Assembly (NCBI GenBank): GCA_028715175.1
Contig: JAQUSJ010000003.1
Coordinates: forward strand, 1-54,971
From: Candidatus Daviesbacteria bacterium
Lineage (GTDB): Bacteria > Patescibacteriota > Microgenomatia > Daviesbacterales > UBA10151
Direction: 5' to 3'
Length of the DNA stretch: 54,971 bases
Positions 175 to 54,971 of the stretch are shown piece after piece; position 1 is the stretch's first letter; every line of letters starts with the position of its first letter. The position numbers were made by a program, and so were the translations under genes. The notes below the pieces were generated by a model that saw only the letters and a list, made by a program, of their open reading frames with translations, was not told the DNA's origin and ran no database searches.

Positions 175-180
175 TTTACG

Positions 181-406
181 GCGTTGAAGAGGAAAAGTAA
201 GCAAGGTGACGTTTTATAGCAAGAAGGATAGCTGAAAGCCTTTAAATTTAATCTTGTCTGAAGAGAGCCTCCGAGCAAAGATCGAAGAAATCTGTCCAAC
301 AGAAAGTAGGTCTTCTTAATAAAGAGTATCTTATTAATTACTTAATAAGATAAATTAGGGTGGTACCACGGGTTAATCTCGTCCCTAGTACAAGGACGAG
401 TTTTTT
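181..406 (+). promoter_or_regulatory. T-box riboswitch leader, probable arginine (AGA) specifier, controlling the argG operon
   Basis: Stem I spans 181-277. It has K-turn halves GCGTTGA and CGAGCA, an AGTA element at 196-199, a distal loop AAGG-ATAGCTGAAAG-CCTT at 224-242, and a specifier loop GAAG-AGA-G at 260-267 directly 5' of helix CCTC (268-271), which pairs with GAGG (189-192). Stem III is TCTTATTA/TAATAAGA at 329-350. The conserved T-box sequence AAATTAGGGTGGTACCACGG is at 352-372, followed by the terminator at 378-406. Confidence 0.8.
378..406 (+). terminator. Intrinsic terminator of the T-box expression platform
   Basis: CTCGTCC (378-384) pairs with GGACGAG (394-400) around a 9-nt loop, followed by TTTTTT at 401-406. 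TAGGG of the T-box sequence can pair instead with CCCTA (383-387) to form an antiterminator. Confidence 0.75.
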
Positions 407-12106: not shown

Positions 12107-13147
12107 ATGAAGCGGATACTTACTGGAGATCGACCTACAGGTAGGTTACATTTAGGCCATTACGTTGGGTCACTCAAAAATAGGGTCAGGTTGCAAGATG
12201 AATATGAGTGTTTTTTCATCATTGCAGATTTGCATACCTTAACCACTAAACCAGAGAAAACAAAAGAGTTAAAGGACAATATTTATCAAATGGTGTTGGA
12301 TTATTTATCTATTGGCATTGATCCAAAAAAGTCTACTGTCTATATCCAATCCCAGATTCCGGAAGTTGCAGAACTGGCCCTAATTTTTGGAAATTTAACC
12401 ACAGTTCCAAGGCTTGAGCGCATGCCGACTTTAAAAGATGTAATGAGAGATGCAGATATACAAGTTCCTTCGTATGGACTCTTGGGTTATCCGGTTTTGC
12501 AGGCGGCAGATATTTTGATGGTTAAAGCTAATTTAGTGCCTGTGGGAAAAGATCAGGTATCTCATGTTGAAGTAACCAGAGAAGTGGCTAGGGATTTTAA
12601 TAGAATTTATCGGTCCACCTCCGAGGAGTCAAAGCCCACCTCGGAGGTGTCTAGTCAGGTTTTGCCAATTCCTGAGGTTTTGGTTGGGGAAATTCCCACT
12701 TTGCCCGGTACAGATGGAGCAGTAAAAATGAGTAAATCTGCAGGTAATGTGATTAATTTATCGGATTCTCCTGAAGAAGTAGAGAAAAAAGTCATGGGTA
12801 TGTATACAGATCCAACCAGGATTCATCCTACAGATCCAGGGCATGTGGAGGGTAATCCGGTATTTACATATTTGGATGCTTTTGGAGCTGATTCTGACAA
12901 ACAACAAATAACTAAGTACCAAGAACTATACAGACAAGGCCAGGTTGGGGATATTGAGGTAAAAAAGTATCTGGTTAAAGTTTTAAATAATTTCCTGGAT
13001 CCAATAAGAGAAAATCGAGCTCGATACGAGCGAGATCCTGAGCTTGTCGAACGGATCTTAAAAGAAGGTACTGCCAAAACCAGAACAGAAGCCCAAAAAA
13101 CCCTCCTTGAAGTCAAAGCTGCCATGAAGCTGGATTATTTTGTATAA
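12107..13147 (+). CDS. trpS: Tryptophanyl-tRNA synthetase
   Basis: GDRPTGRLHLGHYVG is the HIGH motif and KMSKS is present. The start was chosen at MKRILTG. It contains an in-frame hairpin insert at 12615-12649. Confidence 0.9.
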   Translation: MKRILTGDRPTGRLHLGHYVGSLKNRVRLQDEYECFFIIADLHTLTTKPEKTKELKDNIYQMVLDYLSIGIDPKKSTVYIQSQIPEVAELALIFGNLTTVPRLERMPTLKDVMRDADIQVPSYGLLGYPVLQAADILMVKANLVPVGKDQVSHVEVTREVARDFNRIYRSTSEESKPTSEVSSQVLPIPEVLVGEIPTLPGTDGAVKMSKSAGNVINLSDSPEEVEKKVMGMYTDPTRIHPTDPGHVEGNPVFTYLDAFGADSDKQQITKYQELYRQGQVGDIEVKKYLVKVLNNFLDPIRENRARYERDPELVERILKEGTAKTRTEAQKTLLEVKAAMKLDYFV

Positions 13148-13289
13148 AGCAGCTTGTCGCAGTACAAAAAATCACTCGCACGGTAGGGACTTGCTCGTTT
13201 GTGTTAGTTTTGTGTCGATCGGTTTCTGGTCCGAGATTTAGTTAGCACAAAACTAACAACATTTTTTGTTTACTTACGACTTCGCTGCC
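13148..13289 (+). repeat. Structured intergenic repeat, copy 1 (family also at 51431-51570 and 52163-52306)
   Basis: Shares the 5' block GTACAAAAAATCACTCGCAC...GCTCGTTTG and the 3' block CAACATTTTTTGTTTAC...ACTTCGC with the other copies. An internal perfect stem pairs 13201-13214 with 13246-13258. Confidence 0.7.
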
Positions 13290-13317
13290 TTTTAAGGTTT
13301 TATTGTGAAGCTGTTTG

Positions 13318-21150: not shown

Positions 21151-23400
21151 ATGAAAAGATTAGTGCTTGTAGACGGTAATGCCCTGCTTCATCGGGCATA
21201 TCATGCCACTCCTCCTTTTACTACTTCCAAGGGAGAGTTAGTTAATGCTGTTTTTGGCTTTTCTTCCATGATTTTAAAGGTTATTTCTGAACTTCATCCT
21301 GAGTATTTGGCTGTGGCCTGGGATGAAAAAGGGCCAACTTTCAGGCACCAGGCTTATACCCAATATAAAGCCACCCGGGGGCCTGCGGATGAAGGTTTAT
21401 CCAACCAATACAAAAGGGTTCATGAAGTAGTCCGGGCTTTTAATATTCCGGAATTTAAAGTTTCCGGGTACGAAGCAGATGATTTGATTGGGACTTTAGC
21501 TTTGCAGGCACAAAAAGAGAAGGATTTAGAAATTGTCATTGTGACGGGGGATCGGGATATCATGCAGCTTATTGATAAAAAGATTAAAGTATTTATGCCC
21601 AAAAAGACTCTTTCTGATGTGGGGCTTTATGGGGTAGAGGAGTTTATGGTTAAATACGGGTTTTTTCCTAAACAACTTACGGATTATAAGGGTTTGGCAG
21701 GAGATGCATCAGATAATATTCCCGGAGTAGCAGGGATTGGGGATGTTACAGCCACTAAATTAATTCACCAATTTGGTTCTATTGAAGAAATTTACAACCC
21801 TAAAAATTTAAAAACTCTTCCGGAAAGAACGCAAACACTGCTATCAGAAGGTGCAGAATCTGCGGTGATGAGTAAAAAATTGGCTATGCTAGACACAAAA
21901 GCACCTATCAAATTAAATCTTAAAGCTTGTGTAATGCATGATTTTGATAAGGAAAAGGTGGTTAAACTGTTTGAGGAATTAGAGTTTAAAAGTTTGATTG
22001 CCAGGTTACCCGAAGACGCTCGGGGTCCTGTCAGCTCGATATCCCGCCGTGCATCCTCGCTGGACGCTGCGGCTACGCGTCGGGATGCCCTTCTCGCTGC
22101 CACCCCTCGCGTGGCTACTTCTGACTTCGCCATCTCTCTTGATAACTTTGTTGCACCTATATTAGAAAAAATGTCTAAAACAGGTGTTTTAATAGATTTG
22201 AAGTTTTTAAGTAAGTTTGGTAAGGAACTAAAAGCTAAATTAGCCAAACTCGAAAAAGATATTTACTCAAAAGTGGGACATCAGTGTAATCTGAACAGCC
22301 CGAAACAATTATCGCAAGTGCTTTTTGATGAACTAAAATTACCGGTGGTCAGGAAAACTAAAACCGGCCGCTCAACCGATGAAGAGACTTTGCAAGAGTT
22401 ATCTTCCGCCCATCCTGTTGTGCCGTTCCTCCTCCAATACAGGCAGCTGTTTAAGCTGGTTTCAACATATATTGATAGCCTGCCAAAATTTGTTGGGCCG
22501 GATGGCAGAATCCACTCTACTTTTAATGTAGAGGGAGCTGCTACCGGCAGACTATCTTCAAAAGATCCTAATTTGCAAAACATTCCGGTTAAAGGTTCGG
22601 CAGGGGGAGAAATAAGGAAAGCGTTCGTGGCGCCCAAAGGCAAGATTTTATTGGGAGCTGATTATTCACAAATTGAGCTTAGAATAATGGCGCATCTGGC
22701 AGATGACCCGGGGCTAAAGAAAGCTTTTGAGCAAAGTTTGGATATCCACGGCGCCACTGCCTCAAGAATTTTTGGAGTACCAGTGGATAAAGTTACCAGG
22801 CAGCAGAGAATGGTAGCTAAAACCATGAATTTTGCCACGCTTTACGGGCAAGGCCCCCATGCTCTTTCCCGCCAGTTGGGAGTGAAATATGAGGTGGCGC
22901 GTCAATATATTGAAGAATATTTTGAGCAGTTTCCCAAAGTCAGGGAGTGGATGCAAAAAACTTTGGCTTTTGGTTATGAAAATGGTTACATTGAAACTTT
23001 ATGGGGGAGGAAAAGATATATTCCGGAGCTGCGAGCCGAAAATAGAATGATTAAATCAGCAGGTGAGCGGGCTGCTGTTAATCATCCTGTTCAAGGAACT
23101 GCCGCAGACATGATTAAAAAGGCAATGGTGGAAATAGAGAAAGAGCTATCAGCTATCAGCTATCAGCTGTCAGAAAGTCTGAAAGCTGACAAGTCGCCAA
23201 AGGCGACTGATACTGAAAGCTGCCGACTTATTCTCCAGGTTCATGATGAGCTACTTTTTGAATGCAACCCCAAACGTGTTAATGAAGTAGCAAGAATGGT
23301 CAAGGAGAAAATGGAGAATGCCTTAAAACTTTCTGTGCCGGTTTTGGTTGATCTAAAAACAGGGAAGAACTGGGGAGAAATGAAGCCCCTTAGAATTTGA
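21151..23400 (+). CDS. polA: DNA polymerase I: 5'-nuclease plus polymerase domains, no 3'-5' exonuclease domain
   Basis: The N-terminus LVDGNALLHRAYHA and GDASDNIPGV mark the 5'-nuclease. RLSSKDPNLQNIP, ADYSQIELRI and LQVHDELLFE are polymerase motifs A to C. Two repeat-derived inserts are present. Confidence 0.9.
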   Translation: MKRLVLVDGNALLHRAYHATPPFTTSKGELVNAVFGFSSMILKVISELHPEYLAVAWDEKGPTFRHQAYTQYKATRGPADEGLSNQYKRVHEVVRAFNIPEFKVSGYEADDLIGTLALQAQKEKDLEIVIVTGDRDIMQLIDKKIKVFMPKKTLSDVGLYGVEEFMVKYGFFPKQLTDYKGLAGDASDNIPGVAGIGDVTATKLIHQFGSIEEIYNPKNLKTLPERTQTLLSEGAESAVMSKKLAMLDTKAPIKLNLKACVMHDFDKEKVVKLFEELEFKSLIARLPEDARGPVSSISRRASSLDAAATRRDALLAATPRVATSDFAISLDNFVAPILEKMSKTGVLIDLKFLSKFGKELKAKLAKLEKDIYSKVGHQCNLNSPKQLSQVLFDELKLPVVRKTKTGRSTDEETLQELSSAHPVVPFLLQYRQLFKLVSTYIDSLPKFVGPDGRIHSTFNVEGAATGRLSSKDPNLQNIPVKGSAGGEIRKAFVAPKGKILLGADYSQIELRIMAHLADDPGLKKAFEQSLDIHGATASRIFGVPVDKVTRQQRMVAKTMNFATLYGQGPHALSRQLGVKYEVARQYIEEYFEQFPKVREWMQKTLAFGYENGYIETLWGRKRYIPELRAENRMIKSAGERAAVNHPVQGTAADMIKKAMVEIEKELSAISYQLSESLKADKSPKATDTESCRLILQVHDELLFECNPKRVNEVARMVKEKMENALKLSVPVLVDLKTGKNWGEMKPLRI

Positions 23401-23473
23401 CGATAGATGGTAGAAAGTAGAAGATGGAACTTTGAAGATGGAGAATGGACGATAGAAAAGTTATGATAAATAC

Positions 23474-23836
23474 ATGATTCAGAGCTTCAAAGATTTAGAG
23501 GTTTATCAAGAAAGCTATGAATTAGCAATTACTGTAAATAAACTTTGTATAAAACTTCCGATTTATGAGAAAAATGATTTAGCTTCACAATTAAGGCGTG
23601 CCTCAAAATCTGCACCTGCCAATGTTGCCGAAGGTTGGGCGAAAAGAAGATTTGAAAAAGAATTCAAAAAGCATCTCGATTGCGCAATTGGATCAGCTAA
23701 TGAGATGGAGGTGCATTTAAATATGGCAAAAGATTTAGGTTATCTGAATCAGGTAATTTGTGATGAGCTTATTAGTAGATATATTGCTTTAGGCGGGAAA
23801 CTAACCAATCTTAGAAATAATTGGAAAACTTATTAG
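23474..23836 (+). CDS. Four-helix-bundle protein (23S rRNA intervening-sequence protein family)
   Basis: FKDLEVYQESYELA, LRRASKSAPANVAEG and GSANEMEVHL are characteristic of the IVS/four-helix-bundle family. The protein is 120 aa. Confidence 0.8.
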   Translation: MIQSFKDLEVYQESYELAITVNKLCIKLPIYEKNDLASQLRRASKSAPANVAEGWAKRRFEKEFKKHLDCAIGSANEMEVHLNMAKDLGYLNQVICDELISRYIALGGKLTNLRNNWKTY

Positions 23837-23899
23837 TCTATTTTCTACCTTCAATCTTCAAAAATTCTACCATCTATTTTCCATTATCTACTGTCTAGA

Positions 23900-24826
23900 T
23901 CACACCACCATTTTCTTAACAGTTCTTTGTTCTGTTTCAAATTTCACAAATCCAGTTTTTTCCAAAATTAGGAAAATCAGCCAAAGTAGAGGATAGATTA
24001 GAAGGTTGAGGATAGAAACTAGAAATTGGAAAGTCAGAAAAAGTAATATTGCCAGAACTGCTGGCACAAAGCCTAAATAAGGCTTGAGAAAATTTTGCAC
24101 TTGATCCTTGACAGTTTGTTTGATTAAATTATTACTCAATTCTTGCGGAGCTAGGCTAGTTTTAGAAGAATTAGCTAAGCTATCAAGGATTTTAGGGTCT
24201 AAGCCAGATTGTTTTATAAGATCAGGATTTTTCTTTAAAAGTTCTATCTGTTCACCGGTGATTTGCGGCAGGTTTGCTTGTTCAGTCTGGGTGCCGGTTG
24301 TAGGTAGCGGCGCCATTTTAATGGCAGTATCTATCAGAGAATCGGGAATTTGGAAGCCGTTTTGGGCAATAATTTTGCTGGTGGAGAAGAAATAAACAAT
24401 ACAAATTGTCAGTATTAAAAGCCCTGACAAATGCCGAGCAGGAGGGCCCAACAGGCTGGATGGTTGGAAATTTAAGTAGCTTTTTAGCGCGACATCAAGG
24501 CTTAAGTTTGACAGCAGGAAACTAATAAAAATTGCTACTGCAAAAATTACAGCAAAAACTGGGTCCATAAACACAAAAGCTATTGCAGACCCAATAATTG
24601 CAGTAGATAAGCTAATTCTCCAATCCTCTGCAATTGTGGCCAAAAGAATAAATAATAAGCTGGAGAAGGAAATCAAAACTGAAATATAAATTAAAGTAAT
24701 TAGAGTATTTAAAGAAAGCGAGAAAATGAAATCATAGGATCTGAAAAGAGGAGTAGTTAGATAAATTAAGGTTAGGAAAGATATTAAAAAAAGAGGAGCA
24801 AAGATGAGTTTTTTAAAGTTAATCAT
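23900..24826 (-). CDS. Hypothetical polytopic membrane protein
   Basis: Multiple hydrophobic helices at both ends with a polar central segment. No motif recognised. Confidence 0.45.
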   Translation of the reverse strand: MINFKKLIFAPLFLISFLTLIYLTTPLFRSYDFIFSLSLNTLITLIYISVLISFSSLLFILLATIAEDWRISLSTAIIGSAIAFVFMDPVFAVIFAVAIFISFLLSNLSLDVALKSYLNFQPSSLLGPPARHLSGLLILTICIVYFFSTSKIIAQNGFQIPDSLIDTAIKMAPLPTTGTQTEQANLPQITGEQIELLKKNPDLIKQSGLDPKILDSLANSSKTSLAPQELSNNLIKQTVKDQVQNFLKPYLGFVPAVLAILLFLTFQFLVSILNLLIYPLLWLIFLILEKTGFVKFETEQRTVKKMVV

Positions 24827-28988: not shown

Positions 28989-30224
28989 ATGAAAGCGGCC
29001 CTTGTTCATGATTATTTAAAAGAATATGGCGGGGCAGAAAGAGTCCTGGAGGTTTTACATGAGATTTTCCCGGATGCTCCTGTTTATACTGCCTATTACA
29101 ATCCTGAAAGCCTGGGAGAAAACGGTAAAAGATTTAATCCGCCAGCTGGCGGATGGGATATCAGGACTTCCTGGTTTCAAAAATTCCCTTTTGCCAACCG
29201 GTTACTTTCCCCATTCCGCATATTTGGGCCAATGATGTTTGAAAGTTTTGATCTTTCAGAATATGATTTGGTGATTTCTTCCTCATCAGCTACTCATTTG
29301 GCCAAAGCAGTGATTACCAAACCGGAGACTTTGCATATAAGTTACATTCACACACCACCCAGGTTTTTATATGGTTATGTCACCTCTTTTAACTACAAAA
29401 AACACTGGTGGACCAGAATTGGGGGAGAAATAATAAATCACTTTATGAGGATCTATGATTTTGAAGTTTCCCAGAGGCCGGATATTTTGGTAGCTAATTC
29501 CAGGAATGTCCAGGCCAGAATAAAGAAATTTTATCGCAGAGACAGTGTGGTTATTTACCCGCCGGTAGATGTAGCAGCGATCAGTCGTCAGTCGTCAGTC
29601 GTCAGACAATCTGAAAGCAGAAAGCTGAAGGCTGATAGCTATTATCTCGTTTTAAGTAGATTAGTAAGAGGAAAGGGAGTGGAGGTAGTGGTAGAGGCTT
29701 GTGGCAAATTAGGATTACCGCTAAAGGTAGCTGGTACAGGCCCTGAATTGAATAATCTTAAAGATCTTGCTACCAACTACCCGCTTCGCAGTGAGGCGAG
29801 CCAGCTACCAGCTACCAATTTTCTAGGTTGGGTGACAGATGAAGAAAGGGTGAAGCTATTATCAAATGCCAAAGCTTTGATTGTGGCATCAGAAGATGAG
29901 GATTTTGGTATTACTTCAATTGAGGCTCAAGCTGTAGGGACTCCGGTGATCGCTCCTGCCTCCGGAGGTTTCTTGGAAACAGTAATTGATGGCCCGCCTA
30001 CGCATAAAACTTCGGCAGGGCAAGGTAAAACCGGTATTTTGTATGGCGGAGCGGGAATGGTCAATGTTGAGAATTTAGTCGGGGCATTGCAAAAATTTGA
30101 TGCTTCTAAATTTGATCCAGAGGACTGTCGCATGAATGCTGAAAGATTCTCTAAAGAAAGATTTAAAAAAGAAATTTTGGAATTGGTAGAAAAGAATTTG
30201 ACAATAGCGGGTAGTATAGGATAG
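28989..30224 (+). CDS. Glycosyltransferase family 4 (GT-B)
   Basis: EDEDFGITSIEAQAVGTPVIA is the E-x7-E motif. It contains three repeat-derived inserts. Confidence 0.8.
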   Translation: MKAALVHDYLKEYGGAERVLEVLHEIFPDAPVYTAYYNPESLGENGKRFNPPAGGWDIRTSWFQKFPFANRLLSPFRIFGPMMFESFDLSEYDLVISSSSATHLAKAVITKPETLHISYIHTPPRFLYGYVTSFNYKKHWWTRIGGEIINHFMRIYDFEVSQRPDILVANSRNVQARIKKFYRRDSVVIYPPVDVAAISRQSSVVRQSESRKLKADSYYLVLSRLVRGKGVEVVVEACGKLGLPLKVAGTGPELNNLKDLATNYPLRSEASQLPATNFLGWVTDEERVKLLSNAKALIVASEDEDFGITSIEAQAVGTPVIAPASGGFLETVIDGPPTHKTSAGQGKTGILYGGAGMVNVENLVGALQKFDASKFDPEDCRMNAERFSKERFKKEILELVEKNLTIAGSIG

Positions 30225-34956: not shown

Positions 34957-35901
34957 ATGCCAGAGTTACCAGAAGTGGAAACTATAAAGTTAGGGTTAGA
35001 GAAGAGAATTATTGGGTTAAAAATCCAAAAAATCCAGATTTTATCCCCAAAATCTTTTATTGGAAATCCTAATTTAGCCCAGGGTCAAATTGTACTCAAA
35101 ATCTGGAGAAAAGGTAAGATATTAGGAGTGGATCTGAGTAGCTGTCAGTCTTCAGCTATCAGCTATCAGACTAAAAGCAAAAAAAGTCTGACGACTGACG
35201 ACCGACAGCTGACGACTATTCTATTTCATCTAAAAATGACAGGTCAATTAATATATGAAGACGGCAAGAGAATGATAGGTGGTCATCCGACAGAGGATAT
35301 GTTAGGCAAGATGCCAAATCCACATACCAGGGTAATTTTTTCTTTTTCCGATGGGTCGCATTTGTATTTTAATGACCAGAGGAAGTTTGGTTGGGTAAGA
35401 GTTAGTGATAAGCAAAGCTTGCGATCTGTCGATCTTAGGGGAAAAGTGACAAGTGACAAGTTATTTAAAAATTTAGGGCCGGAGCCACTGGAGAAAGAAT
35501 TTACGTGGCAAGCACTAAAACAGAACCTTTTAAAACACCGTCGTATGCCTGTGAAAGTGGCGATTATGGATCAATCTGTGCTTTCCGGCGTGGGCAATAT
35601 CTATTCTAATGAGGCCTGTTTCAATGCTAAAATTGATCCGCGCAAAAAAGTGGGAGATATGAAAGATAGGGAATTTAAGGCACTACACGATGGGATAATT
35701 AAAGCACTCAAGGATGGGATAGCGCACGGAGGTTCAACCAGAGCACATTTTGTGGATCCTGAAGGGCATAAGGGTTATTTTTTGGATTATGCCAAGGTTT
35801 ATGGTAAAGGAGGTTATCTTTGCCAAGGCTGCAAAGGTAAAGTCAAAAAAATTACTCTGGGAGGCCGCGGCACATATTTTTGCCCCAAATGCCAAAAATG
35901 A
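34957..35901 (+). CDS. mutM: Formamidopyrimidine-DNA glycosylase
   Basis: N-terminal MPELPEVE, an H2TH region, and a C-terminal zinc finger CQGCKGKVKKITLGGRGTYFCPKCQ. A repeat insert lies at 35137-35218. Confidence 0.9.
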   Translation: MPELPEVETIKLGLEKRIIGLKIQKIQILSPKSFIGNPNLAQGQIVLKIWRKGKILGVDLSSCQSSAISYQTKSKKSLTTDDRQLTTILFHLKMTGQLIYEDGKRMIGGHPTEDMLGKMPNPHTRVIFSFSDGSHLYFNDQRKFGWVRVSDKQSLRSVDLRGKVTSDKLFKNLGPEPLEKEFTWQALKQNLLKHRRMPVKVAIMDQSVLSGVGNIYSNEACFNAKIDPRKKVGDMKDREFKALHDGIIKALKDGIAHGGSTRAHFVDPEGHKGYFLDYAKVYGKGGYLCQGCKGKVKKITLGGRGTYFCPKCQK

Positions 35902-35944: not shown

Positions 35945-37315
35945 ATGAGTGAAAAACCAACATTTGCCTCGGTAATTGCAAACCGGGGGTTTTTAAATCT
36001 TTGGATTAATCAAATTTTAGTTCAACTGTCTTTTAATTCCCTAAATTTTGCCCTGATCCTTTGGGTTTTTAAGTTAACAGATTCTAACACTGCTGTATCT
36101 GCTTTGCTTTTTTCAATTTACCTGCCGGCAGTAATTTTGGGTTTATTTGCAGGTGTTTTGGTAGATATTATTGACCGGCGTAAAATTATCATGGTGATTA
36201 ATTTTTTCTTGGGCTTATCTTTTTTTAGTCTGATTTTTTTAAAAACTTCTCTGCCGGCCATTTTGGTAATTACTTTTTTTGTTAATGCCTTAGGCCAATT
36301 TTATGCTTTGGCCGAAGCCTCAGCTATTCCACTTGTAGTTTTGAAAAATCAACTAATTACCGCCAACTCCATTTTTTCCGTCACCCTTTATTCCGCATTC
36401 CTGGTGGGGTTTGGTCTGTCAGGGCCACTTCTTAATCATTTAGGCATCAACTGGGTATTCGGATTGGAAGGAGCGGCTTTAGCTGTGGCCTTTTTATTAT
36501 CTTTGAAATTTCCTTCTATTAAGTCTTTGCCTGATATACAAGGACAAAGGCTGATTCGTGCCCTTTCGGAAAAGAAATATGGCAGAATTTGGGAGATTGG
36601 ACTAATTGAGATTTTGGATACTATTCGCCTCATTAGAGGGAAACTTCCAGTTTTAACATCAATAATAATTTTGGCAGGAGTACAAATGGGGATCGGGATT
36701 GTGGCAGTTTTAGTCCCGGGCTTTTTGGAAAAATCCCTTCATATTAAAGCTACTGATGCCACATATGTTTTGGTTATTCCTTTAGGGGTGGGGATTGTGA
36801 TTGGCGGGCTGATTTTAGGTAGATTTGGCAATAGACTGATGAAAAGAAAATTAGTGGGATGGTCAATTTTGTTTGCCGGGCTATTGTCTTTTATTGTAGG
36901 TATTGCCCCAATCATTTCACCTGCCATTCGCTATCTGGGTTATCCCAGACCACAGCCATTTTTCTACCAACCATCTTTAAGCCAAGTGTTGATGGTAGGA
37001 TCATTTTTGCTGGGCATTGCTGTAATTTCAATTTTAGTCCCATCGCAGACAGTTTTACAGCAAAACACTTCTGAAAAAGATCGGGCTAAGGTATTTTCAG
37101 TATTGGGTGTGGCTATGTACGGGCTATCACTGCTTCCGATTTTACTCTCCGGAGTTTTGGCAGATGTTTTTGGGACCGGGCCGATTTTTATCGGACTTGG
37201 TGTAATAATCATATTGATGGGACTGTTTGGGTTAAAGCCCTCTCTCTTTTTCAGAAAGAGAGAGTTGTCTTATCGGGTCAGAGAATTTTTAGGGTTAGGA
37301 CATTGGGAGAATTAG
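35945..37315 (+). CDS. MFS transporter
   Basis: About 12 hydrophobic helices. The loop 2-3 motif is VDIIDRRKIIM. The start was chosen at MSEKPTF, because the tool ORF start at 35750 lies inside mutM. Confidence 0.75.
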   Translation: MSEKPTFASVIANRGFLNLWINQILVQLSFNSLNFALILWVFKLTDSNTAVSALLFSIYLPAVILGLFAGVLVDIIDRRKIIMVINFFLGLSFFSLIFLKTSLPAILVITFFVNALGQFYALAEASAIPLVVLKNQLITANSIFSVTLYSAFLVGFGLSGPLLNHLGINWVFGLEGAALAVAFLLSLKFPSIKSLPDIQGQRLIRALSEKKYGRIWEIGLIEILDTIRLIRGKLPVLTSIIILAGVQMGIGIVAVLVPGFLEKSLHIKATDATYVLVIPLGVGIVIGGLILGRFGNRLMKRKLVGWSILFAGLLSFIVGIAPIISPAIRYLGYPRPQPFFYQPSLSQVLMVGSFLLGIAVISILVPSQTVLQQNTSEKDRAKVFSVLGVAMYGLSLLPILLSGVLADVFGTGPIFIGLGVIIILMGLFGLKPSLFFRKRELSYRVREFLGLGHWEN

Positions 37316-37440
37316 ATGATAGAAGATAGAATGTAGAAGGTAGAATTTTGATAATAGAATATGGAAGATAGATTATTTCTGTCCATCTTCTATTTTCCAT
37401 CCTCAAATATCCATCATCCATTTTCTACAATCTATCGTCG
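37315..37440. repeat. Empty hairpin of the GATAGAAG/ATGGAAG palindromic family, related to the arms flanking the four-helix-bundle gene
   Basis: The left arm 37315-37372 and right arm 37382-37440 are inverted. The reverse complement of the right arm is about 80% identical by eye to 23399-23460. Confidence 0.7.
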
Positions 37441-37449
37441 AAATAAACT

Positions 37450-41111: not shown

Positions 41112-42218
41112 ATGATGGGGAGACTGGTTCTGTCCGATGGGACAGTTTTTTTAGGGGAAAGTTTCGGGAAAGAGGATACCACCTCAGGGGAGGTGGTTTT
41201 TAATACCGGAATGGCAGGCTACCCCGAATCTCTGACAGACCCATCTTATTTCGGGCAAATTCTGGTTTTAACCTACCCCTTGCAAGGCAATTATGGGGTT
41301 CCGGAGAGTAAGTTTTGGGAATCAGGGAAAATTCAGGTTAAGGGACTAATTGTCCAAAATTATATTGATCACCCATCACATTTTGAAAGCCGGAAAACTT
41401 TGGGAGATTGGCTTAAGGAACAAGGAATACCTGCTATACAAGGAATTGATACCAGAGAGCTGACCAGGAAGTTAAGGGAACATGGAGTGATGTTGGGGAA
41501 GATAGTCGTCAGCTATCAGCCATCAGTCGTCAGAGAAGACATAATTGGGATTTATGATCCTAACAAAGAAAATATTTTGCCTTATGTAAGTACTAAGAAA
41601 GTTGAAGTCTATGGTGAAGGCAGAAAAAATATAGTTCTAATTGATTGTGGAGCAAAGGAAAATATTATCAGGAGTTTAGTAAAGAGAGGCGTAAGAGTGA
41701 CAAGAGTGCCTTGGGACTTTAATCCGCTGACATCAAAAATAGATTCTTCGCTAGTCGCTCAGAATGACAGGGGGGGTGGGCTGGATTTTGACGGAGTGCT
41801 GGTTTCAAATGGGCCGGGTGATCCGAAACAGGCAAAGGATACTATAAAAATTGTCAAACAGCTTCTAGAAGCAAATATTCCGACATTTGGTATTTGTTTA
41901 GGCAGCCAGATTTTAGCGTTAGCTGCAGGCGGAGAAACCTACAAATTAAAATTTGGCCACAGAGGTCAAAATCAGCCAGTCATGGACCAATTTAATAAAA
42001 AGGCTGTGATAACCAGTCAGAATCACGGATTTGCAGTTGATATGAAATCAATGGATAAAGATTGGAAGGAATGGTTTGTTAACTTAAACGACGGGACAAA
42101 TGAAGGAATCAGGCATAAAAGTAAACCGTTTTTGGCAGTGCAGTTTCACCCGGAGGCAAACCCGGGTCCGATTGAGGGAGGATATTTGTTTGATGAGTTT
42201 CTAAAATATGTCAAATAA
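41112..42218 (+). CDS. carA: Carbamoyl-phosphate synthase small (glutaminase) subunit
   Basis: The N-terminus LSDGTVFLGESFG, the GATase triad region FGICLGSQ, and QFHPE. Confidence 0.9.
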   Translation: MMGRLVLSDGTVFLGESFGKEDTTSGEVVFNTGMAGYPESLTDPSYFGQILVLTYPLQGNYGVPESKFWESGKIQVKGLIVQNYIDHPSHFESRKTLGDWLKEQGIPAIQGIDTRELTRKLREHGVMLGKIVVSYQPSVVREDIIGIYDPNKENILPYVSTKKVEVYGEGRKNIVLIDCGAKENIIRSLVKRGVRVTRVPWDFNPLTSKIDSSLVAQNDRGGGLDFDGVLVSNGPGDPKQAKDTIKIVKQLLEANIPTFGICLGSQILALAAGGETYKLKFGHRGQNQPVMDQFNKKAVITSQNHGFAVDMKSMDKDWKEWFVNLNDGTNEGIRHKSKPFLAVQFHPEANPGPIEGGYLFDEFLKYVK

Positions 42219-45489: not shown

Positions 45490-45523
45490 TTAGATTTTTT
45501 GCGGGAAAAATGCGATAATCAAA

Positions 45524-45609
45524 ATAGCTATCAGTCATCAGTCATCAGTCTTCAGCTATCAGACTTAAAATTAAAGTCTGACGACTGAAAGCTGACAGCT
45601 GATAGCTAT
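45524..45609. repeat. Prototype heptamer-palindrome element (intergenic copy)
   Basis: ATAGCTATCAGTCATCAGTCATCAGTCTTCAGCTATCAGACT, then loop TAAAATTAA, then AGTCTGACGACTGAAAGCTGACAGCTGATAGCTAT. The arms are built from CAGCTAT/CAGTCRT 7-mers. Confidence 0.85.
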
Positions 45610-47595: not shown

Positions 47596-49365
47596 ATGCT
47601 ATTTTCTAAATTAGCGGAATACTTTGAAAAATTGGAACAAACTTCTTCCAGACTTACTTTAATTGATATTCTCTGTGATTTATTTAAAGAAGTAAAAGCA
47701 GAGGAGGTTAGTAAAGTTTGCTATTTAATCCAGGGTCGAGTGGCTCCTTTTTATGAACCGATAGAGATCGGCATGGCAGAGCGTACAGTTGCTGCCAGCA
47801 TAGCCCGGGCATATGGAGTGAAGCGGGAAGACGTTCTTGAGGAATATGGTAAGGTTGGTGATTTAGGGTTGGTGGCAGAGCAGATGACCATTTGTCATTC
47901 TGGTAAGCGAAGCGCATCCATAATCGATTCTGGACAAGCCAGAATGACAGTTGCAGAGGTTTTTAAGACATTAAAAGAAATTGCTCAAATTTCAGGGGTT
48001 GGGACTGTGGAGAAAAAACAAGGTCTGTTGGTAGGTCTTTTGCAAAAAGTAGATTCTGTTTCAGCTAAACATCTGGTCAGAATTCCCCTCGGGGTATCAA
48101 GACTCGGGATTGGGGACCCGACAATTTTGGATGCTTTTGCCAAATTAAAATTGGGGGATAGATCCAAACGTAAACTTTTGGAAGGGGCATATAACCGGGT
48201 TTCTGATTTAGGTTTGATTGGGGAAACTTTATGGAAAGGTGGACTTGTCGCGGTTGAAAAACTGCAAGTCCGGGTGGGAAGACCAATACGGTCCCAGCTT
48301 GCAGAAAGGTTGCCAAACCCGGAAAAAGTCATAGAAAAAATGGGCGAGGTGAATGTACAAAGAAAGCTGGACGGATTCCGTGTTCAAATCCACAAAGATG
48401 GAGAAGCAGTCAGGCTTTTTTCGCGGAATTTGGAGGAAACAACAGCAATGTTTCCGGAGATTGTAGAAGGGACTACGGTGCAGATTAAAGCCAAAACTGC
48501 AATCTTAGACTGTGAGGCAATTGGTTTTAACCCTTTGTCTGATGAATTTTTGCCTTTTCAGGAAACTACCCAAAGACGTAGAAAATACGGCATTTCTGAA
48601 ATGGCAAAAAAGATCCCCCTGAAAGCTTTTTGTTTTGATATTTTGTATAAAAATAACAAATCTCTGATTAATTTACCTCTTCACGAAAGACTAAAAGAGC
48701 TGGAAAGTATTGCCAAACAGGACGACACGATTATTATTGAAAAGGGCGAAACTGTAAAAGACGGAAAAAAACTGCAAATACTTTTGGATGATGCTATTTC
48801 CAAAGGTTTGGAAGGGGTTGTTTGCAAAAGACTGGATTCAAAATATGAGGCAGGGGCCAGAAATTTTAACTGGGTTAAACTGAAGAGACATTCTGCAGGG
48901 GAGCTAGAGGATACCATTGACTGCGTGATTTTAGGTTACATTTTTGGCAAGGGAAAAAGATCCGGGTTCGGGGCCGGGTCTTTGCTTGTGGGTGTTTACG
49001 ATGAGTCGCAAGATGAATTTGTGACAGTTTCCAAAATTGGCACCGGTTTAACAGATGAGGAATGGAGAGAAATACACAAAAGAGCGGATAAAATTAAGGT
49101 TTTGCACAAACCTGCCAGGGTGAATTCTCTTTTGACCCCCAGTGTTTGGATTGAACCCTCGATTGTGATTGAAGTTTTGGCAGATGAGATTACCCGTTCT
49201 CCTGTACATACTGCCGGAAAAAAGGGTCCGCCAGCTGGCGGAGAACCTGGCTATGCCCTAAGATTTCCCCGGCTGGTGAAATTCCGCGAAGCTGACAAAA
49301 AAGCAGAGGATGCCACAACAGTGAAAGAGTTGATTGAGATGTATAAACAGCAGTTTAAAAAGTAA
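47596..49365 (+). CDS. lig: ATP-dependent DNA ligase (three-domain, archaeal/eukaryotic Lig1-like)
   Basis: Motif I is KLDGFRVQIH, with the adenylated Lys. Also present are EGVVCK, NWVKLK, and an OB domain with LRFPRLVKFR. Confidence 0.9.
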   Translation: MLFSKLAEYFEKLEQTSSRLTLIDILCDLFKEVKAEEVSKVCYLIQGRVAPFYEPIEIGMAERTVAASIARAYGVKREDVLEEYGKVGDLGLVAEQMTICHSGKRSASIIDSGQARMTVAEVFKTLKEIAQISGVGTVEKKQGLLVGLLQKVDSVSAKHLVRIPLGVSRLGIGDPTILDAFAKLKLGDRSKRKLLEGAYNRVSDLGLIGETLWKGGLVAVEKLQVRVGRPIRSQLAERLPNPEKVIEKMGEVNVQRKLDGFRVQIHKDGEAVRLFSRNLEETTAMFPEIVEGTTVQIKAKTAILDCEAIGFNPLSDEFLPFQETTQRRRKYGISEMAKKIPLKAFCFDILYKNNKSLINLPLHERLKELESIAKQDDTIIIEKGETVKDGKKLQILLDDAISKGLEGVVCKRLDSKYEAGARNFNWVKLKRHSAGELEDTIDCVILGYIFGKGKRSGFGAGSLLVGVYDESQDEFVTVSKIGTGLTDEEWREIHKRADKIKVLHKPARVNSLLTPSVWIEPSIVIEVLADEITRSPVHTAGKKGPPAGGEPGYALRFPRLVKFREADKKAEDATTVKELIEMYKQQFKK

Positions 49366-49382: not shown

Positions 49383-50672
49383 ATGGCTTATGTAGCTGAT
49401 TTGCATCTTCACTCCAGATTCTCAAGGGCTTGCTCCCAGAAGTTAAATATACCTACTTTGTCTGCATGGGGGAAGACAAAAGGTATTAATGTTTTAGGTA
49501 CTTCTGATTTTTTGCATCCTGTCTGGTTTATCGAACTTAAAAACCAACTTAAAGAAGACGGTTCAGGTTTTTTAATTCATGACGGTTCGGAAACAAAATT
49601 TGTTTTATCTGTTGAGGTGGCCTCAATTTATTCTCATAAAGGTAAAGGTAGGAGAATACATAATGTTATTTTGTTGCCTGATTTTGCATCCGCAGAGAGA
49701 TTTCAAAAAGAGCTGCTATCACGCCATGCAAATTTGGGTTCTGATGGCAGGCCGATTGTGGGGATTTCCTCAAAAGATCTTTTAAGTATAGTTTTACAGA
49801 TTTCCGAAAAAGCCATTTTTATCCCGGCCCATGCCTGGACGCCCTGGTTTGGGATTTTTGGTTCAGAGTCTGGTTATGACTCTTTGGAAGAATGCTTTGA
49901 GGATTTAACAGAGTATATTTATGGAATAGAAACAGGGCTATCTTCTGATCCGGCCATGAACTGGCGGATAAAAGAACTTGATAACCGGTCAATAATTTCC
50001 TGTTCCGATGCCCACTCACTGCCTAATTTAGGCAGGGAAGCAACGGTATTTGATGAAAGATTGGAACAGGGATATCAAGGGTTATTTGAGGCTATAAAAA
50101 ATCAGAAAATTGCCGGTACTATTGAATTTCATCCGGAAGAGGGGAAGTATCATTACACGGGGCATCGCAATTGTAATATAAAATATTCACCCGAAGAAAC
50201 AAAGGTAAAAGGCGCAATTTGTCCAAAGTGCGGTCGGGGATTAACTGTCGGAGTAATGGAGAGGGTGGAGAAGTTAGCTTTGCGATCGAATGAAGAATTG
50301 AGAATTGATAATGTAAAAGGAATAATAAAAAGCAAAGCGTTTCCGGAAAAAGCAGGATATAGGATGCTGGTGCCTCTTTTACAAATAATTGCAGAAAGTT
50401 TTAATACTGCTCCAACAACCCAAAAGGTCTTAAACGAGTATGAAAAGTTAACAGATTTATTGGGAGGAGAGATTAAGATTTTGACTAAAGTTGACACAGG
50501 GGAAATTGCCAAAGTGTCCGGTTCGAAAATTGCAGAAGGGGTGGATAAAGTAAGGCGCGGGGATTTGGTAATTGATCCTGGGTATGATGGGGTGTATGGG
50601 GTGGTGAAGATTTGGGGTAGTGAAGCTGGACCGAAAGAGGAAGAGACTCCGCAGTTGGAGTTGTTTGATTAA
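49383..50672 (+). CDS. Endonuclease Q-like PHP-domain nuclease (TIGR00375 family)
   Basis: ADLHLHSRFSRA, GTSDFLHPVW, GRP, PAHAWTPW, GLSSD, SCSDAHSLPNLGRE, GKYHYTGH, the zinc ribbon CPKCGRGLTVGVMERV, and C-terminal PGYDGVYG. These are colinear with the remembered Pyrococcus EndoQ sequence. Confidence 0.75.
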   Translation: MAYVADLHLHSRFSRACSQKLNIPTLSAWGKTKGINVLGTSDFLHPVWFIELKNQLKEDGSGFLIHDGSETKFVLSVEVASIYSHKGKGRRIHNVILLPDFASAERFQKELLSRHANLGSDGRPIVGISSKDLLSIVLQISEKAIFIPAHAWTPWFGIFGSESGYDSLEECFEDLTEYIYGIETGLSSDPAMNWRIKELDNRSIISCSDAHSLPNLGREATVFDERLEQGYQGLFEAIKNQKIAGTIEFHPEEGKYHYTGHRNCNIKYSPEETKVKGAICPKCGRGLTVGVMERVEKLALRSNEELRIDNVKGIIKSKAFPEKAGYRMLVPLLQIIAESFNTAPTTQKVLNEYEKLTDLLGGEIKILTKVDTGEIAKVSGSKIAEGVDKVRRGDLVIDPGYDGVYGVVKIWGSEAGPKEEETPQLELFD

Positions 50673-50682
50673 AGAGTTGGTT

Positions 50683-50783
50683 CGCTCGGGGTCCTGCCGG
50701 CTCGATATCCCGCCGTGCATCCTCGCTCGACTATGCTCGCTGCGGCTACGCGTCGGGATGCCCTTCTCGCCGTCACCCCTCGC
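50683..50783. repeat. GC-rich hairpin element, intergenic copy (coding copy in polA at 22017-22110)
   Basis: About 90% identical to 22017-22110, with one 7-nt indel. Internal pairings include ATCCCG/CGGGAT and GCATCC/GGATGC. Confidence 0.8.
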
Positions 50784-50806
50784 TTATTTTGTTCGTTTTA
50801 ATTGAA

Positions 50807-51430
50807 ATGAAGATTTTTAAAGATAGACAATCTGCTGGAAAATTATTGACTGAGAGGCTAAAAAACATCAAGGCTGATCTGGTTTTAGGTATCCCGAGAG
50901 GCGGGGTGGTAGTGGCGGCAGAAGTGGCCAGACAATTAAATCTGCCATTGGATATCATAGTTACCAGGAAAATTGGCGCTCCAAACCAGGAAGAATTGGC
51001 TCTGGGGGCTGTGGATCCGGACGGAGAAGTAGTATGGGATCAGGAACTTTTGGATGAACTTAAAATAAAACCTGAAGATTTAAAACAAAAGATTGGTACA
51101 GAGATAAAAGAATTAAAAAGAAGGGAAAAACTATATAGACAAGGCAGATCGTCTCTTGATATCTCCGGGAAAACAGTCATTTTAACAGATGATGGCATGG
51201 CTACCGGCTCCACTACTCTTGCTGCTGTTAAATACCTAAAAAGGCATGAGGTAAAGGTAATATTGGCTGTGCCAGTGGCAAGCCAGGAGGCTTTGGATAA
51301 AGTGGAAAATGAGGTTGGAAAGCTGGTAGTATTGGAGATTCCTGAATATTTCCAGGCCGTAGGCCAATTTTACCAGCAGTTCCTACCTGTTTCAGATGAA
51401 GAAGTGATACAATTAATGCTTAGAAGTTAG
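50807..51430 (+). CDS. Phosphoribosyltransferase family protein
   Basis: The PRPP-binding loop is VILTDDGMATGST. The start was chosen at MKIFKDR. Confidence 0.8.
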   Translation: MKIFKDRQSAGKLLTERLKNIKADLVLGIPRGGVVVAAEVARQLNLPLDIIVTRKIGAPNQEELALGAVDPDGEVVWDQELLDELKIKPEDLKQKIGTEIKELKRREKLYRQGRSSLDISGKTVILTDDGMATGSTTLAAVKYLKRHEVKVILAVPVASQEALDKVENEVGKLVVLEIPEYFQAVGQFYQQFLPVSDEEVIQLMLRS

Positions 51431-51570
51431 CTCGTCAGCGCGCAAAAAATCGCTCGCACGCTAGTATCGTTGCTCGCTTGTGAGGATTTTGTGGTAGCCA
51501 GATTCAATATCATTTGGTTCTATCTGCACAAAATCCTCAACATTTTTTGACTGCTGCTGACTTCGCTATC
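51431..51570 (+). repeat. Structured intergenic repeat, copy 2
   Basis: Has the same terminal blocks as 13148-13289. The stem pairs 51480-51493 with 51527-51539 and carries compensatory changes. Confidence 0.7.
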
Positions 51571-51577
51571 TTTACCG

Positions 51578-52159: not shown

Positions 52160-52162
52160 TAA

Positions 52163-52306
52163 GCGGCTCGTTCGTGTACAAAAAACCGCTCGCGCAACCA
52201 AATCGCTCGCTTGATGTTTGTTTCGCGCCATGCAAACATCTGAATCATGAAGTAGGTAAATGTGCTCAACTACACAACATTTTTTGTTTACACTGAACTT
52301 CGCCGC
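52163..52306 (+). repeat. Structured intergenic repeat, copy 3
   Basis: GTACAAAAAACCGCTCGCGC...CGCTCGCTTG at the 5' end and CAACATTTTTTGTTTACACTGAACTTCGCCGC at the 3' end. The internal hairpin differs: 52213-52220 pairs with 52233-52240. Confidence 0.65.
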
Positions 52307-52353
52307 TTTTTGTTCTTGACAGAAAGTAGGTTTCTCTTTAGACTAAGGTATTC

Positions 52354-54797: not shown

Positions 54798-54856
54798 ATT
54801 AATGCCTTATAGGTTAACAAATAATAATTTTATTGTCAAATTAGTGTCTTGGCCAC

Positions 54857-54971
54857 CTAGATAGAGAACGGTTGTCCTCCTTTCTCAAGATAACTTTTAA
54901 TATAAGCTAGCGGGGTCTGGTAATGCAAGGAGTGGTGGTATCTTTTCTGATTATACTTTTCATTAAATATG
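54857..54971 (-). CDS. 3' end of a second, inverted copy of the same transposase gene (5' part outside the window)
   Basis: The reverse complement is identical to 12-126, with stop codon CTA at 54857-54859 on the plus strand. Confidence 0.6.
   Translation of the reverse strand, partial: IFNEKYNQKRYHHSLHYQTPLAYIKSYLEKGGQPFSI

Follow-up and report, generated by a model that had tools for sequence, protein, structure and literature searches.

The stretch of DNA considered here (contig JAQUSJ010000003.1 of assembly GCA_028715175.1, from a Candidatus Daviesbacteria bacterium; 54,971 nt, hereafter the window) carries polA, the gene for a compact DNA polymerase I (Pol I), and within polA a short GC-rich segment, designated element A. 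The segment at 22017-22110 is very probably a copy of a dispersed, hairpin-forming repeat, apparently mobile, that is translated as part of the tether between the 5′-nuclease and polymerase domains. Element A as a whole is likely a non-autonomous repeat that has become a passenger in a pre-existing Pol I tether, and the loss of the 3′-5′ exonuclease domain from this Pol I is likely older than the insertion and unrelated to it. Coordinates of all features are collected in Table 1; L numbers denote loci and P numbers denote polA orthologues.

A preliminary description of the window had singled out the 94-nt segment for its base composition and for its recurrence in non-coding DNA, and both observations hold. 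The GC content of the segment is 70.2%, versus 39.6% for the window, and the polA copy and the intergenic copy form the top two 60-nt GC stretches (maxima of 0.73 and 0.70), all other runs being at 0.63 or below. The polA copy begins with CGCTCGGGGTCCTGTCAGCTCG, ends with GCTGCCACCCCTCGC and encodes residues 290-320 of Pol I, ARGPVSSISRRASSLDAAATRRDALLAATPR (ARGPVSS...ATPR), which are 31 residues rich in Ala, Arg and Ser. The intergenic copy lies 10 nt past the stop codon of a PHP-like gene (49383-50672) and 5 nt before a phosphoribosyltransferase gene (50789-51430). The two copies differ by five substitutions and one 7-nt indel in the apical loop, giving 94% identity over aligned columns, and four of the five substitutions amount to a swap of a T.C for a C.T apposition together with an adjacent compensatory change from A:T to G:C. 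Probes of 44 and 32 nt taken from element A match these two window sites only (0 of 100 shuffles matched), and a covariance model of the family, described below, finds element A at the same two sites only when applied at every position of the window.

Regarding the family to which these copies belong, the first collection was made from the polA loci of orthologues whose linkers start with ARGP, and the same DNA occurs at the same place of polA in L002, L003/L004, L005 and L006. A pattern of the termini (CGGGGTCCTGNC, 55-85 nt, CACCCCTCGC) scanned over one genome per species (185,579 species) matches at least 118 stretches. About 23 of these have no further resemblance and lie nearly all in records of 60-74% GC, a number near the chance expectation for a GC-rich pattern. 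The remaining sequences, about 100 distinct ones, share features that the pattern did not require, namely a GCT just in front, one long hairpin, a CCT bulge of 3 nt that follows the GGGGT/ACCCC stem, a CCC...GGG helix further in, GTCCTCG- and GCTGCGG-like motifs near the apex, and a pyrimidine-rich bulge (CCCTC) on the 3′ side. The consensus is 5'-nGCTC GGGGT CCT G Y C [variable stem] ... [variable stem and loop] ... (N)CCCTC [stem] G Y C ACCCC TCGC-3', with an interior sequence that is genome-specific and an architecture that is common to the copies. In some loci, such as L070, L087 and L056, the interior has been swapped for unrelated AT-rich sequence while the ends are kept. The copies are open in five of the six reading frames in most cases.

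The hairpin is supported by covariation. RNAalifold applied to 28 diverse copies gave 22 pairs, 10 of them with compensatory changes, and the resulting alignment was used to build a covariance model, R1; a heuristic based on stem P2 for separating true from chance matches was too strict, and the model was used instead. Over 100 loci, R1 detects 108 copies, some of them without the exact termini, and several copies per 8-kb locus occur in other genomes. In the R1 alignment, 92.7% of cells are paired versus 43-56% when the partners are slid by 1-3 columns, changes on both sides are found in 15 of the 22 pairs, and the covariation score is 0.386, versus 0.133 in shuffles (0 of 500 reach the observed value) and 0.03-0.08 in slid alignments. 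At a position pair free of the scanning pattern, the counts are C.T 55, T.C 43, G-C 4, C.C 3 and T.T 1 (Fisher p=6e-24). This position is a covarying non-canonical pair, and the fixed 3-nt bulge is likewise common to the copies. Two pairings had been proposed from the window alone. One of them, ATCCCG/CGGGAT, falls within the inner helix that the family supports; the other, GCATCC/GGATGC, overlaps the 3′ side of that helix and is confined to the window copies, being unsupported because relatives have GGGATCCC at this place. On the complementary strand, the conserved TC/TC foot would become a tandem G.A motif in a CGAG/GAGC context, and the folding z-scores of the window copies are -2.0 to -2.2 for the minus strand versus -0.6 to -0.7 for the plus strand.

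Copies of element A reside in genes about as often as between them. Across all loci, about 60% of the roughly 100 copies lie inside long open reading frames (ORFs). In low-GC loci, to which the following counts were restricted since long ORFs are meaningful there, 38 of 72 copies lie inside long ORFs, 17 in forward and 21 in reverse orientation relative to the host gene, and the host frame is open through element A in all 38. Six hosts were checked against Pfam, and domains were recognised on both sides of the insert in each: a class-I aminoacyl-tRNA synthetase (at one site in two genomes), DinB, topoisomerase I (in two genomes, but not at one site), RadA, a MurA-like enzyme and an ATP-dependent DNA ligase. 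Five further hosts, namely DnaX, TypA, PheT, a CCA-adding enzyme and another polA, were assigned from reading of the translation alone. Two repeat families are in-frame in the DinB / Pol IV gene of L022, one being element A (TARGPASSVSRRASS...) and the other of the VIPAKAGIH type.

These counts bear on the possibility that element A is primarily a functional structured RNA, such as a cis-regulatory element, a terminator or stabiliser, or a small RNA, with the polA copy being incidental. Such a role would fit the strong covariation and the conserved non-helical features. It would also fit the position of the intergenic window copy, which directly follows a stop codon in sense orientation and is followed by a T-rich tract, the many other intergenic copies that lie a few nucleotides past an upstream stop codon, and a mild bias toward the majority gene strand (46:27, p=0.03). 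However, half of the low-GC copies are in coding sequence at a ratio of 17 forward to 21 reverse, and the absence of a preferred orientation within genes speaks against a function as sense-strand RNA and in favour of an element that acts at the DNA level. Within the helices, G.T is not enriched over A.C, and the interior is replaceable by unrelated AT-rich sequence with the ends persisting, as mentioned above. With Rfam 15, no family matches element A at the gathering threshold over the whole window, and nothing meaningful appears even at E<=10 over 50640-50830; a scan for terminator and promoter consensus sequences makes no terminator call on the intergenic copy. A primary RNA function is thus improbable, although it is the best placed of the alternatives to a mobile DNA repeat.

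The proposal that the segment is a mobile element agrees with its dispersal, since copies occupy different places in related genomes. In L025, a Daviesbacteria locus syntenic with 45-51 kb of the window, element A lies in the spacer that separates the orthologue of the ligase gene (47596-49365) from that of the PHP-like gene, and the window copy lies one spacer downstream of this position; the other site is empty in each genome, and the L025 spacer orthologous to 50683-50783 is AT-rich. The closest relative, L001, is about 91% identical in nucleotide sequence over 20 kb and has no element A in 22 kb. Its differences from the window fall precisely at spots that bear repeats: the linker and another site of polA, a block of 508 nt with a gene for a four-helix-bundle protein, and some intergenic hairpins. 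The two window copies are each other's nearest relatives (94%), whereas copies at the orthologous polA site are 71-88% identical and copies in unrelated genes 87-90%. Among the matches listed, records with element A are titled Daviesbacteria, Levybacteria, Curtissbacteria, Microgenomates, Doudnabacteria and Saccharibacteria, and also Omnitrophota, Elusimicrobiota, Planctomycetota, Thermoanaerobaculia, Acidimicrobiales, Bacillota and one Legionella metagenome-assembled genome (MAG). Several records titled "MAG TPA_asm: uncultured Gammaproteobacteria" (L043, L020, L060 and others) are low-GC MAGs that are probably Patescibacteria; L043 is syntenic with the polA, ftsH and tRNA-synthetase genes of the window, so these titles are unreliable and are to be discounted.

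The polA linker has received more than one insertion. In the orthologue set, which comprises 118 unsplit sequences among the best 120 matches, element A is present in forward orientation in at least 10 orthologues (P0001, P0011, P0039, P0045, P0058, P0060, P0069, P0090, P0106 and P0110), and its reverse complement (...RRVAA..EDARR..ELTGPRA) in the linkers of P0009, P0017 and P0027. The covariance model finds the minus-strand element in the polA loci of P0017 (L127, 78 bits) and P0009 (L126, 40 bits, with an enlarged apex), while the reversed copy of P0027 is read from the peptide alone. The starting codon, seven past the conserved FKSL motif, is identical for forward and reversed copies. At the same spot, the two closest relatives, L001 and L007, have a full copy of a different hairpin repeat, family C (peptide GAARHGAKNRS...PHFLTARDFA), ending ...GACTTCGC, and other orthologues have translations of further hairpin families (VIPANAGIQ...LDPRLRGDD; VILNASEGSQDLKSRDSS; VIASEAKQS...IATS..PRNDK; DSGQARMT). 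The Pol I linker is therefore a permissive site that element A, forward as well as reversed, and at least four other repeat families have entered repeatedly. It had been suggested that the domain junction is built from element A, but the insert was added to an existing, length-tolerant linker that other repeat families have entered as well. A family-C-like tail follows element A in the window, L002 and L003, a family-C-like 5′ fragment precedes it in L005, and the intergenic element A of L025 likewise sits within family-C-like flanks. Element A thus seems to have entered or replaced an older family C element, and judged from the sequence match, 22111-22135 is probably the remnant of an older family C insertion that element A interrupted or replaced.

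A single ancestral insertion, inherited since then as part of the Pol I linker and with all other copies being secondary, would account for the forward copies at one and the same codon in at least 10 orthologues and for the family-C-like tail that several orthologues share after element A, the similarities among polA copies being due to vertical descent. This explanation is very improbable for several reasons. In a neighbour-joining tree of the 118 polA orthologues calculated with the linker masked, the orthologues with element A are scattered among those with short or different linkers, three orthologues carry the element reversed (two confirmed at the DNA level), and the closest relative, at 91% nucleotide identity, has family C instead. 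In addition, copies at the polA site show no greater similarity than those in unrelated genes, and the polA copy of the window is nearest to the intergenic copy of the window.

Whether element A reaches the mature protein is a separate issue, as it might be excised from the mRNA, skipped by the ribosome in the manner of GC-rich inserts in some yeast mitochondria, or lost through protein splicing. The occurrence of a GC-rich hairpin insert in AT-rich coding sequence would suit such a scheme, as would the lengths of the copies, which are not bound to multiples of three (45, 38 and 25 copies for remainders 0, 1 and 2). Nevertheless, the frame is open in polA and in all 38 intragenic low-GC copies and continues into recognisable domains, which skipping would not require; intein and intron signatures are absent, and intragenic copies occur in both orientations. 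Removal is accordingly even harder to credit than a single ancestral insertion. Intein/LAGLIDADG domains (PF14528, PF14890, PF05204), another type of selfish insert, occur within Pol I in two other orthologues, P0054 and P0059 (1153-1164 aa).

Pol I of the window consists of two folded domains joined by a short tether. Pfam recognises 5_3_exonuc_N (PF02739, residues 3-170, E 4e-54), 5_3_exonuc (PF01367, 173-268, E 3e-27) and DNA_pol_A (PF00476, 352-743, E 6e-147), and no 3′-5′ exonuclease family matches even at E<=1. Taq Pol I aligns with the protein in two blocks (Taq 13-283 with residues 3-284, Taq 437-829 with residues 334-743), leaving 49 residues in the place of the vestigial exonuclease domain of Taq, which has about 150. 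An AlphaFold model built with 50 orthologues (mean pLDDT 77.7) shows two folded domains and an unstructured region at 290-324 with pLDDT below 50. Its polymerase domain superposes on KlenTaq over 413-418 columns with a root-mean-square deviation of 2.2-2.4 Å, and the best structural matches of the model are full-length Taq Pol I and M. smegmatis Pol I. The earlier statement that this Pol I is devoid of a 3′-5′ exonuclease domain is thus borne out. As in Taq/Bst-type Pol I, a family-A polymerase with an N-terminal 5′-nuclease is without proofreading activity; unlike Taq, which retains the exonuclease-domain fold (about 290-420), the domain is wholly gone here, and only a tether remains.

The same architecture extends over the lineage. 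All 118 orthologues (696-777 aa) have the same three Pfam domains and are without the exonuclease domain whatever the linker contains, and their linkers, measured between the conserved FKSL and LD motifs, are hypervariable at 19-70 residues. In a search of 1.84 billion cluster representatives (50%-identity clusters), the Pol I clusters that come next (42-53% identity) mostly have 830-980 aa and align in two stretches that are separated by about 190 additional residues; single-stretch matches are limited to a handful of clusters of 710-755 aa. Pol I without any exonuclease fold is an old, rare and lineage-wide architecture. As the domain is missing from all 118 orthologues regardless of linker content, its loss is older than the insertion of element A and independent of it; the domain would have been lost earlier, in the common ancestor of the Daviesbacteria-type Pol I proteins.

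The location of element A exactly where an exonuclease domain would be expected would fit the earlier idea that the element replaced this domain or helped to delete it. This is scarcely credible, because a form that is lineage-wide cannot be linked to an insert in this one polA: the domain is missing from orthologues with 19-residue, repeat-free linkers, from those with other repeat families and from the closest relative, which has no element A. A chimeric assembly or contamination, which the foreign composition (70% versus 40% GC) and the origin of the sequence as a metagenome contig that ends in repeats might suggest, can be dismissed almost entirely, since the reading frame is preserved, the same kind of insert is found in independent assemblies from NCBI, ENA, JGI and Logan, and more than 100 copies have a common covarying structure.

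Regarding the history of the insert as a mobile passenger, element A would have landed in a pre-existing flexible tether between the 5′-nuclease and polymerase domains and would be read through as residues that are predicted to be disordered. The insert is tolerated because the length and sequence of the tether are nearly unconstrained. The encoded peptide may be regarded as a passenger, given that it is rich in Ala, Arg and Ser, predicted to be disordered and missing in the nearest relative; nothing points to a function, and the earlier proposal that the element was exapted as a linker is not supported.

As for the mode of movement, element A may move as a folded single strand, of DNA rather than RNA, that would be recognised through its conserved foot (the GC/TC mismatch/GGGGT stem, the 3-nt bulge and the C.T mismatch) by an enzyme supplied in trans. 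A HUH/Y1-type transposase, of the kind known from IS200/IS605 or associated with REPs, could be this enzyme and would work at the replication fork. HUH/Y1 transposases are obvious candidates because they read imperfect, bulged hairpins, leave no duplications and give a replication-linked orientation bias, and the bulge and mismatches of element A, which are asymmetric and conserved, hint at recognition of a single strand. Of 73 low-GC copies, 61 have the plus strand of element A on the G-rich strand (p=5e-9), and with |skew|>0.05 the count is 53 of 60 (p ~1e-9). The cumulative skew of the window increases over its whole length, and the plus strand holds both of its copies. Such a bias is what replication-coupled single-strand transposition would produce and is suggestive in this respect, GC skew being only a proxy for the direction of replication. 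A single-strand HUH mechanism is put forward tentatively, as one possibility among others.

Several points weigh against the interpretation of element A as a mobile passenger, or against this mechanism. The skew bias may partly reflect the weaker bias toward the majority gene strand (46:27, p=0.03). Moreover, element A is one hairpin and does not have two distinct ends, and no target motif was found; its flanks have no consistent direct repeat and no common upstream sequence. A model of CTCG target duplication, by which the insert in the polA of the window would measure 87 nt (29 codons), does not fit the other polA copies (92 or 101 nt), and 5′ variants such as TTCG have no counterpart at the 3′ end. 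No solitary 5′ or 3′ ends bracket a gene, only complete and slightly variant copies being found; viral contigs scanned with the termini pattern contain no element A; and no transposase is present among the 11 window proteins scanned against Pfam, no partner gene being identified in the 55 kb. The repeated hits at the polA site could reflect selection for a permissive site, targeting of earlier repeats, or gene conversion. On the side of structure, the genome scan demanded exact termini, which makes their conservation partly circular, the alignment behind the pair counts was itself fitted to the model, and G.T (68 cells) is barely above A.C (53 cells), so that the folded strand, and RNA versus DNA, are not readable from wobble pairs. 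The translation of element A in polA is deduced from the open frame.

The behaviour of element A resembles that of the Rickettsia palindromic elements (RPEs), which are repeats of about 150 bp in ten families, nearly half of them in-frame in unrelated genes (Ogata et al. 2000, via the review PMC10969869). Both are short (about 100-150 nt), palindromic, dispersed repeats that are also intergenic and occur in several families per genome, and both often enter unrelated housekeeping genes of a bacterium with a small genome in such a way that the frame is kept, the protein gaining a peptide and staying intact. The window has two palindromic copies of element A in 55 kb, and the 38 of 72 low-GC copies inside ORFs are insertions into unrelated genes. 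In contrast to RPEs, which are confined to Rickettsia and close relatives, element A is found in Patescibacteria and in high-GC records of Thermoanaerobaculia, Planctomycetota, Elusimicrobiota and Acidimicrobiales, and it is GC-rich in AT-rich hosts. We know of no description of a covarying C.T/T.C mismatch or a fixed bulge for RPEs. As the host belongs to the Patescibacteria, membership in the named RPE families is unlikely, and the likeness is one of behaviour, compared with RPEs as they are described. By this analogy, element A may be called RPE-like in behaviour, within a family that appears to be undescribed, unusually widespread and structured.

Other hairpin repeats share the structural features. 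Repetitive extragenic palindromic (REP) sequences and REPINs, associated with the RAYT transposases, are reportedly extragenic by definition and have a conserved GTAG-type head. Like element A, they are non-autonomous, long, imperfect hairpins of about 70-110 nt with conserved distal sequences and compensatory changes in the arms, form families within genomes and are presumed to be recognised as single-stranded hairpins. Element A shows the imperfect hairpin, the conserved distal sequence and the compensatory arm changes, but about half of its copies are intragenic, its head is GCTCGGGGT, and no RAYT gene was found, no search having been aimed at one. The ends of IS200/IS605 elements and the PATEs are said to consist of two different subterminal hairpins with a defined target tetra- or pentanucleotide. 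They are comparable to element A in that they are imperfect hairpins, in their case with functionally important bulges or mismatches, and lack a target duplication. Their strand-specific activity is coupled to replication and gives an orientation bias, with which the 61:12 distribution of element A to the G-rich strand may tentatively be compared. They differ from it in that element A is a single hairpin over its whole length with no target motif found, and TnpA/TnpB genes bracketed by solitary element ends were not found near element A. Among bacterial MITEs (miniature transposable elements with inverted repeats), in-frame fusions are documented for intragenic ERIC, Coxiella QMITE1 and Anabaena MITEs (PMC10969869). 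These are also small, non-autonomous repeats that are occasionally intragenic and read through, but the intragenic fraction is much higher for element A. In classical MITEs, the terminal inverted repeats correspond to those of a parent insertion sequence and target duplications flank the element; neither feature was found for element A. The ends of element A are only GC-TC-GGGGT versus ACCCC-TC-GC, with the CCT bulge as a systematic asymmetry, and no long element sharing these ends was found. Literature searches gave nothing relevant on the sequence of element A or on peptide strings typical of the other repeat families, nor on the Candidate Phyla Radiation joined with MITEs or in-frame repeats.

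In addition to element A, the window contains other repeats. Family C has an outer stem (AGCAGCTCGTC..CAAAAAAT / ATTTTTTG..GACTTCGCTGC) around inner hairpins. A possible homology of family C and element A would rest on a basal GC-TC...TC-GC motif, which is all that the two have in common. Family B, whose TCAGCTA-type heptamers form hairpins, is in-frame in PolA, a GT4 glycosyltransferase, MutM/Fpg and CarA, and has one complete hairpin in an intergenic spacer. In PolA it forms a second in-frame insertion, and in L001 the corresponding place (window 23145-23229) is taken by 31 nt of a different, shorter repeat. Family G is in-frame in the ATP-dependent DNA ligase (ICHSGKRSASIIDSGQARMT), at the exact site of element A in the orthologous ligase of L123. 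The GT4 glycosyltransferase (ORF 28989-30224) has extra small, GC-rich, in-frame inserts compared with L001 at 29990-30030 and other sites (NPPA, PLRSEAS, GPPTHKTSAGQ), and short insertions pepper the coding regions even between these 91%-identical relatives. The PF05635 gene encodes a 23S rRNA IVS protein / Avd-like four-helix bundle. On either side of it lie AT-rich arms of the GATGGTAGAA type (23396-23456 and 23861-23897), to which 37313-37442 is related; the block around the gene, which is missing from the closest relative, looks like a cassette inserted inside a hairpin repeat. Two copies of an insertion sequence, inverted relative to each other, probably form the ends of the contig.

Table 1. 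Features of the window and, where stated, of related loci
Feature	Position	Strand	Remarks
polA (compact Pol I)	21151..23400	+	ORF, 749 aa; 5′-nuclease ~1-283, predicted disordered linker 284-333, family-A polymerase domain 334-749
Element A, intragenic copy	22017..22110	+	94 nt, 70.2% GC, in-frame in polA; covariance model 95.8 bits
Element A, intergenic copy	50683..50783	+	101 nt, 70.3% GC; covariance model 101 bits
Linker tail VATSDFAI, like the 3′ end of family C	22111..22135	+	83% match to the 3′ end of a family C copy (51548-51571)
Family B repeat, second in-frame insertion in polA	23141..23190	+	TCAGCTA-type heptamer hairpin arm; ~20-residue insertion versus Taq, just before the QVHDE motif
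Family B, all sites	23141-23190, 29576-29652, 35145-35219, 41502-41537, 45523-45609		TCAGCTA-type heptamers forming hairpins
Family C, intergenic copy 1	13147..13292	+	~150 nt, multi-hairpin
Family C, intergenic copy 2	51425..51573	+	
Family C, intergenic copy 3	52161..52310	+	
Family C in the polA linker, L001	10868-11020		in-frame
Family C in the polA linker, L007	10876-11030		in-frame
Family G hairpin repeat	47889..47951	+	perfect 10-bp arms GTCATTCTGG...CCAGAATGAC; in-frame in ATP-dependent DNA ligase
PF05635 gene	23474-23836		within block 23399-23906
Inverted copies at the window ends	12-138 and 54845-54971		97% identical; read as C-terminus of an rve/DDE-type transposase (..YNQKRYHHSLHYQTPLAYIKSYL..)
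T-box leader	175-389		Rfam RF00230, 104 bits; upstream of gene 427-1650; only Rfam family at gathering score in the window

The polA locus taken alone is an ordinary passenger insertion; it is the wider family, and the extent of its in-frame spread through essential genes, that merits attention. To our knowledge, the in-frame colonisation of essential genes by palindromic repeats has been regarded as a peculiarity of Rickettsia. The same behaviour is now seen in Patescibacteria, with several families coexisting and with repeated insertion at the same loops, namely the Pol I tether, a surface loop of Pol I and a loop of DNA ligase. Such inserts inflate and diversify housekeeping proteins in MAGs and can mislead alignment, domain annotation and phylogenomics. 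The compact Pol I without an exonuclease fold is of possible interest for replication and repair in reduced genomes and for polymerase engineering. A well-defined structure with a covarying non-Watson-Crick pair and with termini that recur in unrelated phyla points to conserved recognition machinery. It can be speculated, with considerable reserve, that element A, and perhaps family C with its common 5'-GC TC [stem]...[stem] TC GC-3' foot, represents an undescribed, cross-phylum class of single-strand hairpin mobile elements. The recognition module of this class (the tandem pyrimidine mismatch, the GGGGT stem, the 3-nt bulge and the covarying C.T/T.C pair) would be read by a widely distributed enzyme, and in Patescibacteria the elements would be a systematic source of new segments in essential proteins, entering the same permissive loops again and again. 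If this is true, element A would be a general engine of protein length variation in reduced genomes, beyond one gene. Its inserts provide a natural experiment on the origin of new protein segments and on the sites that tolerate them.

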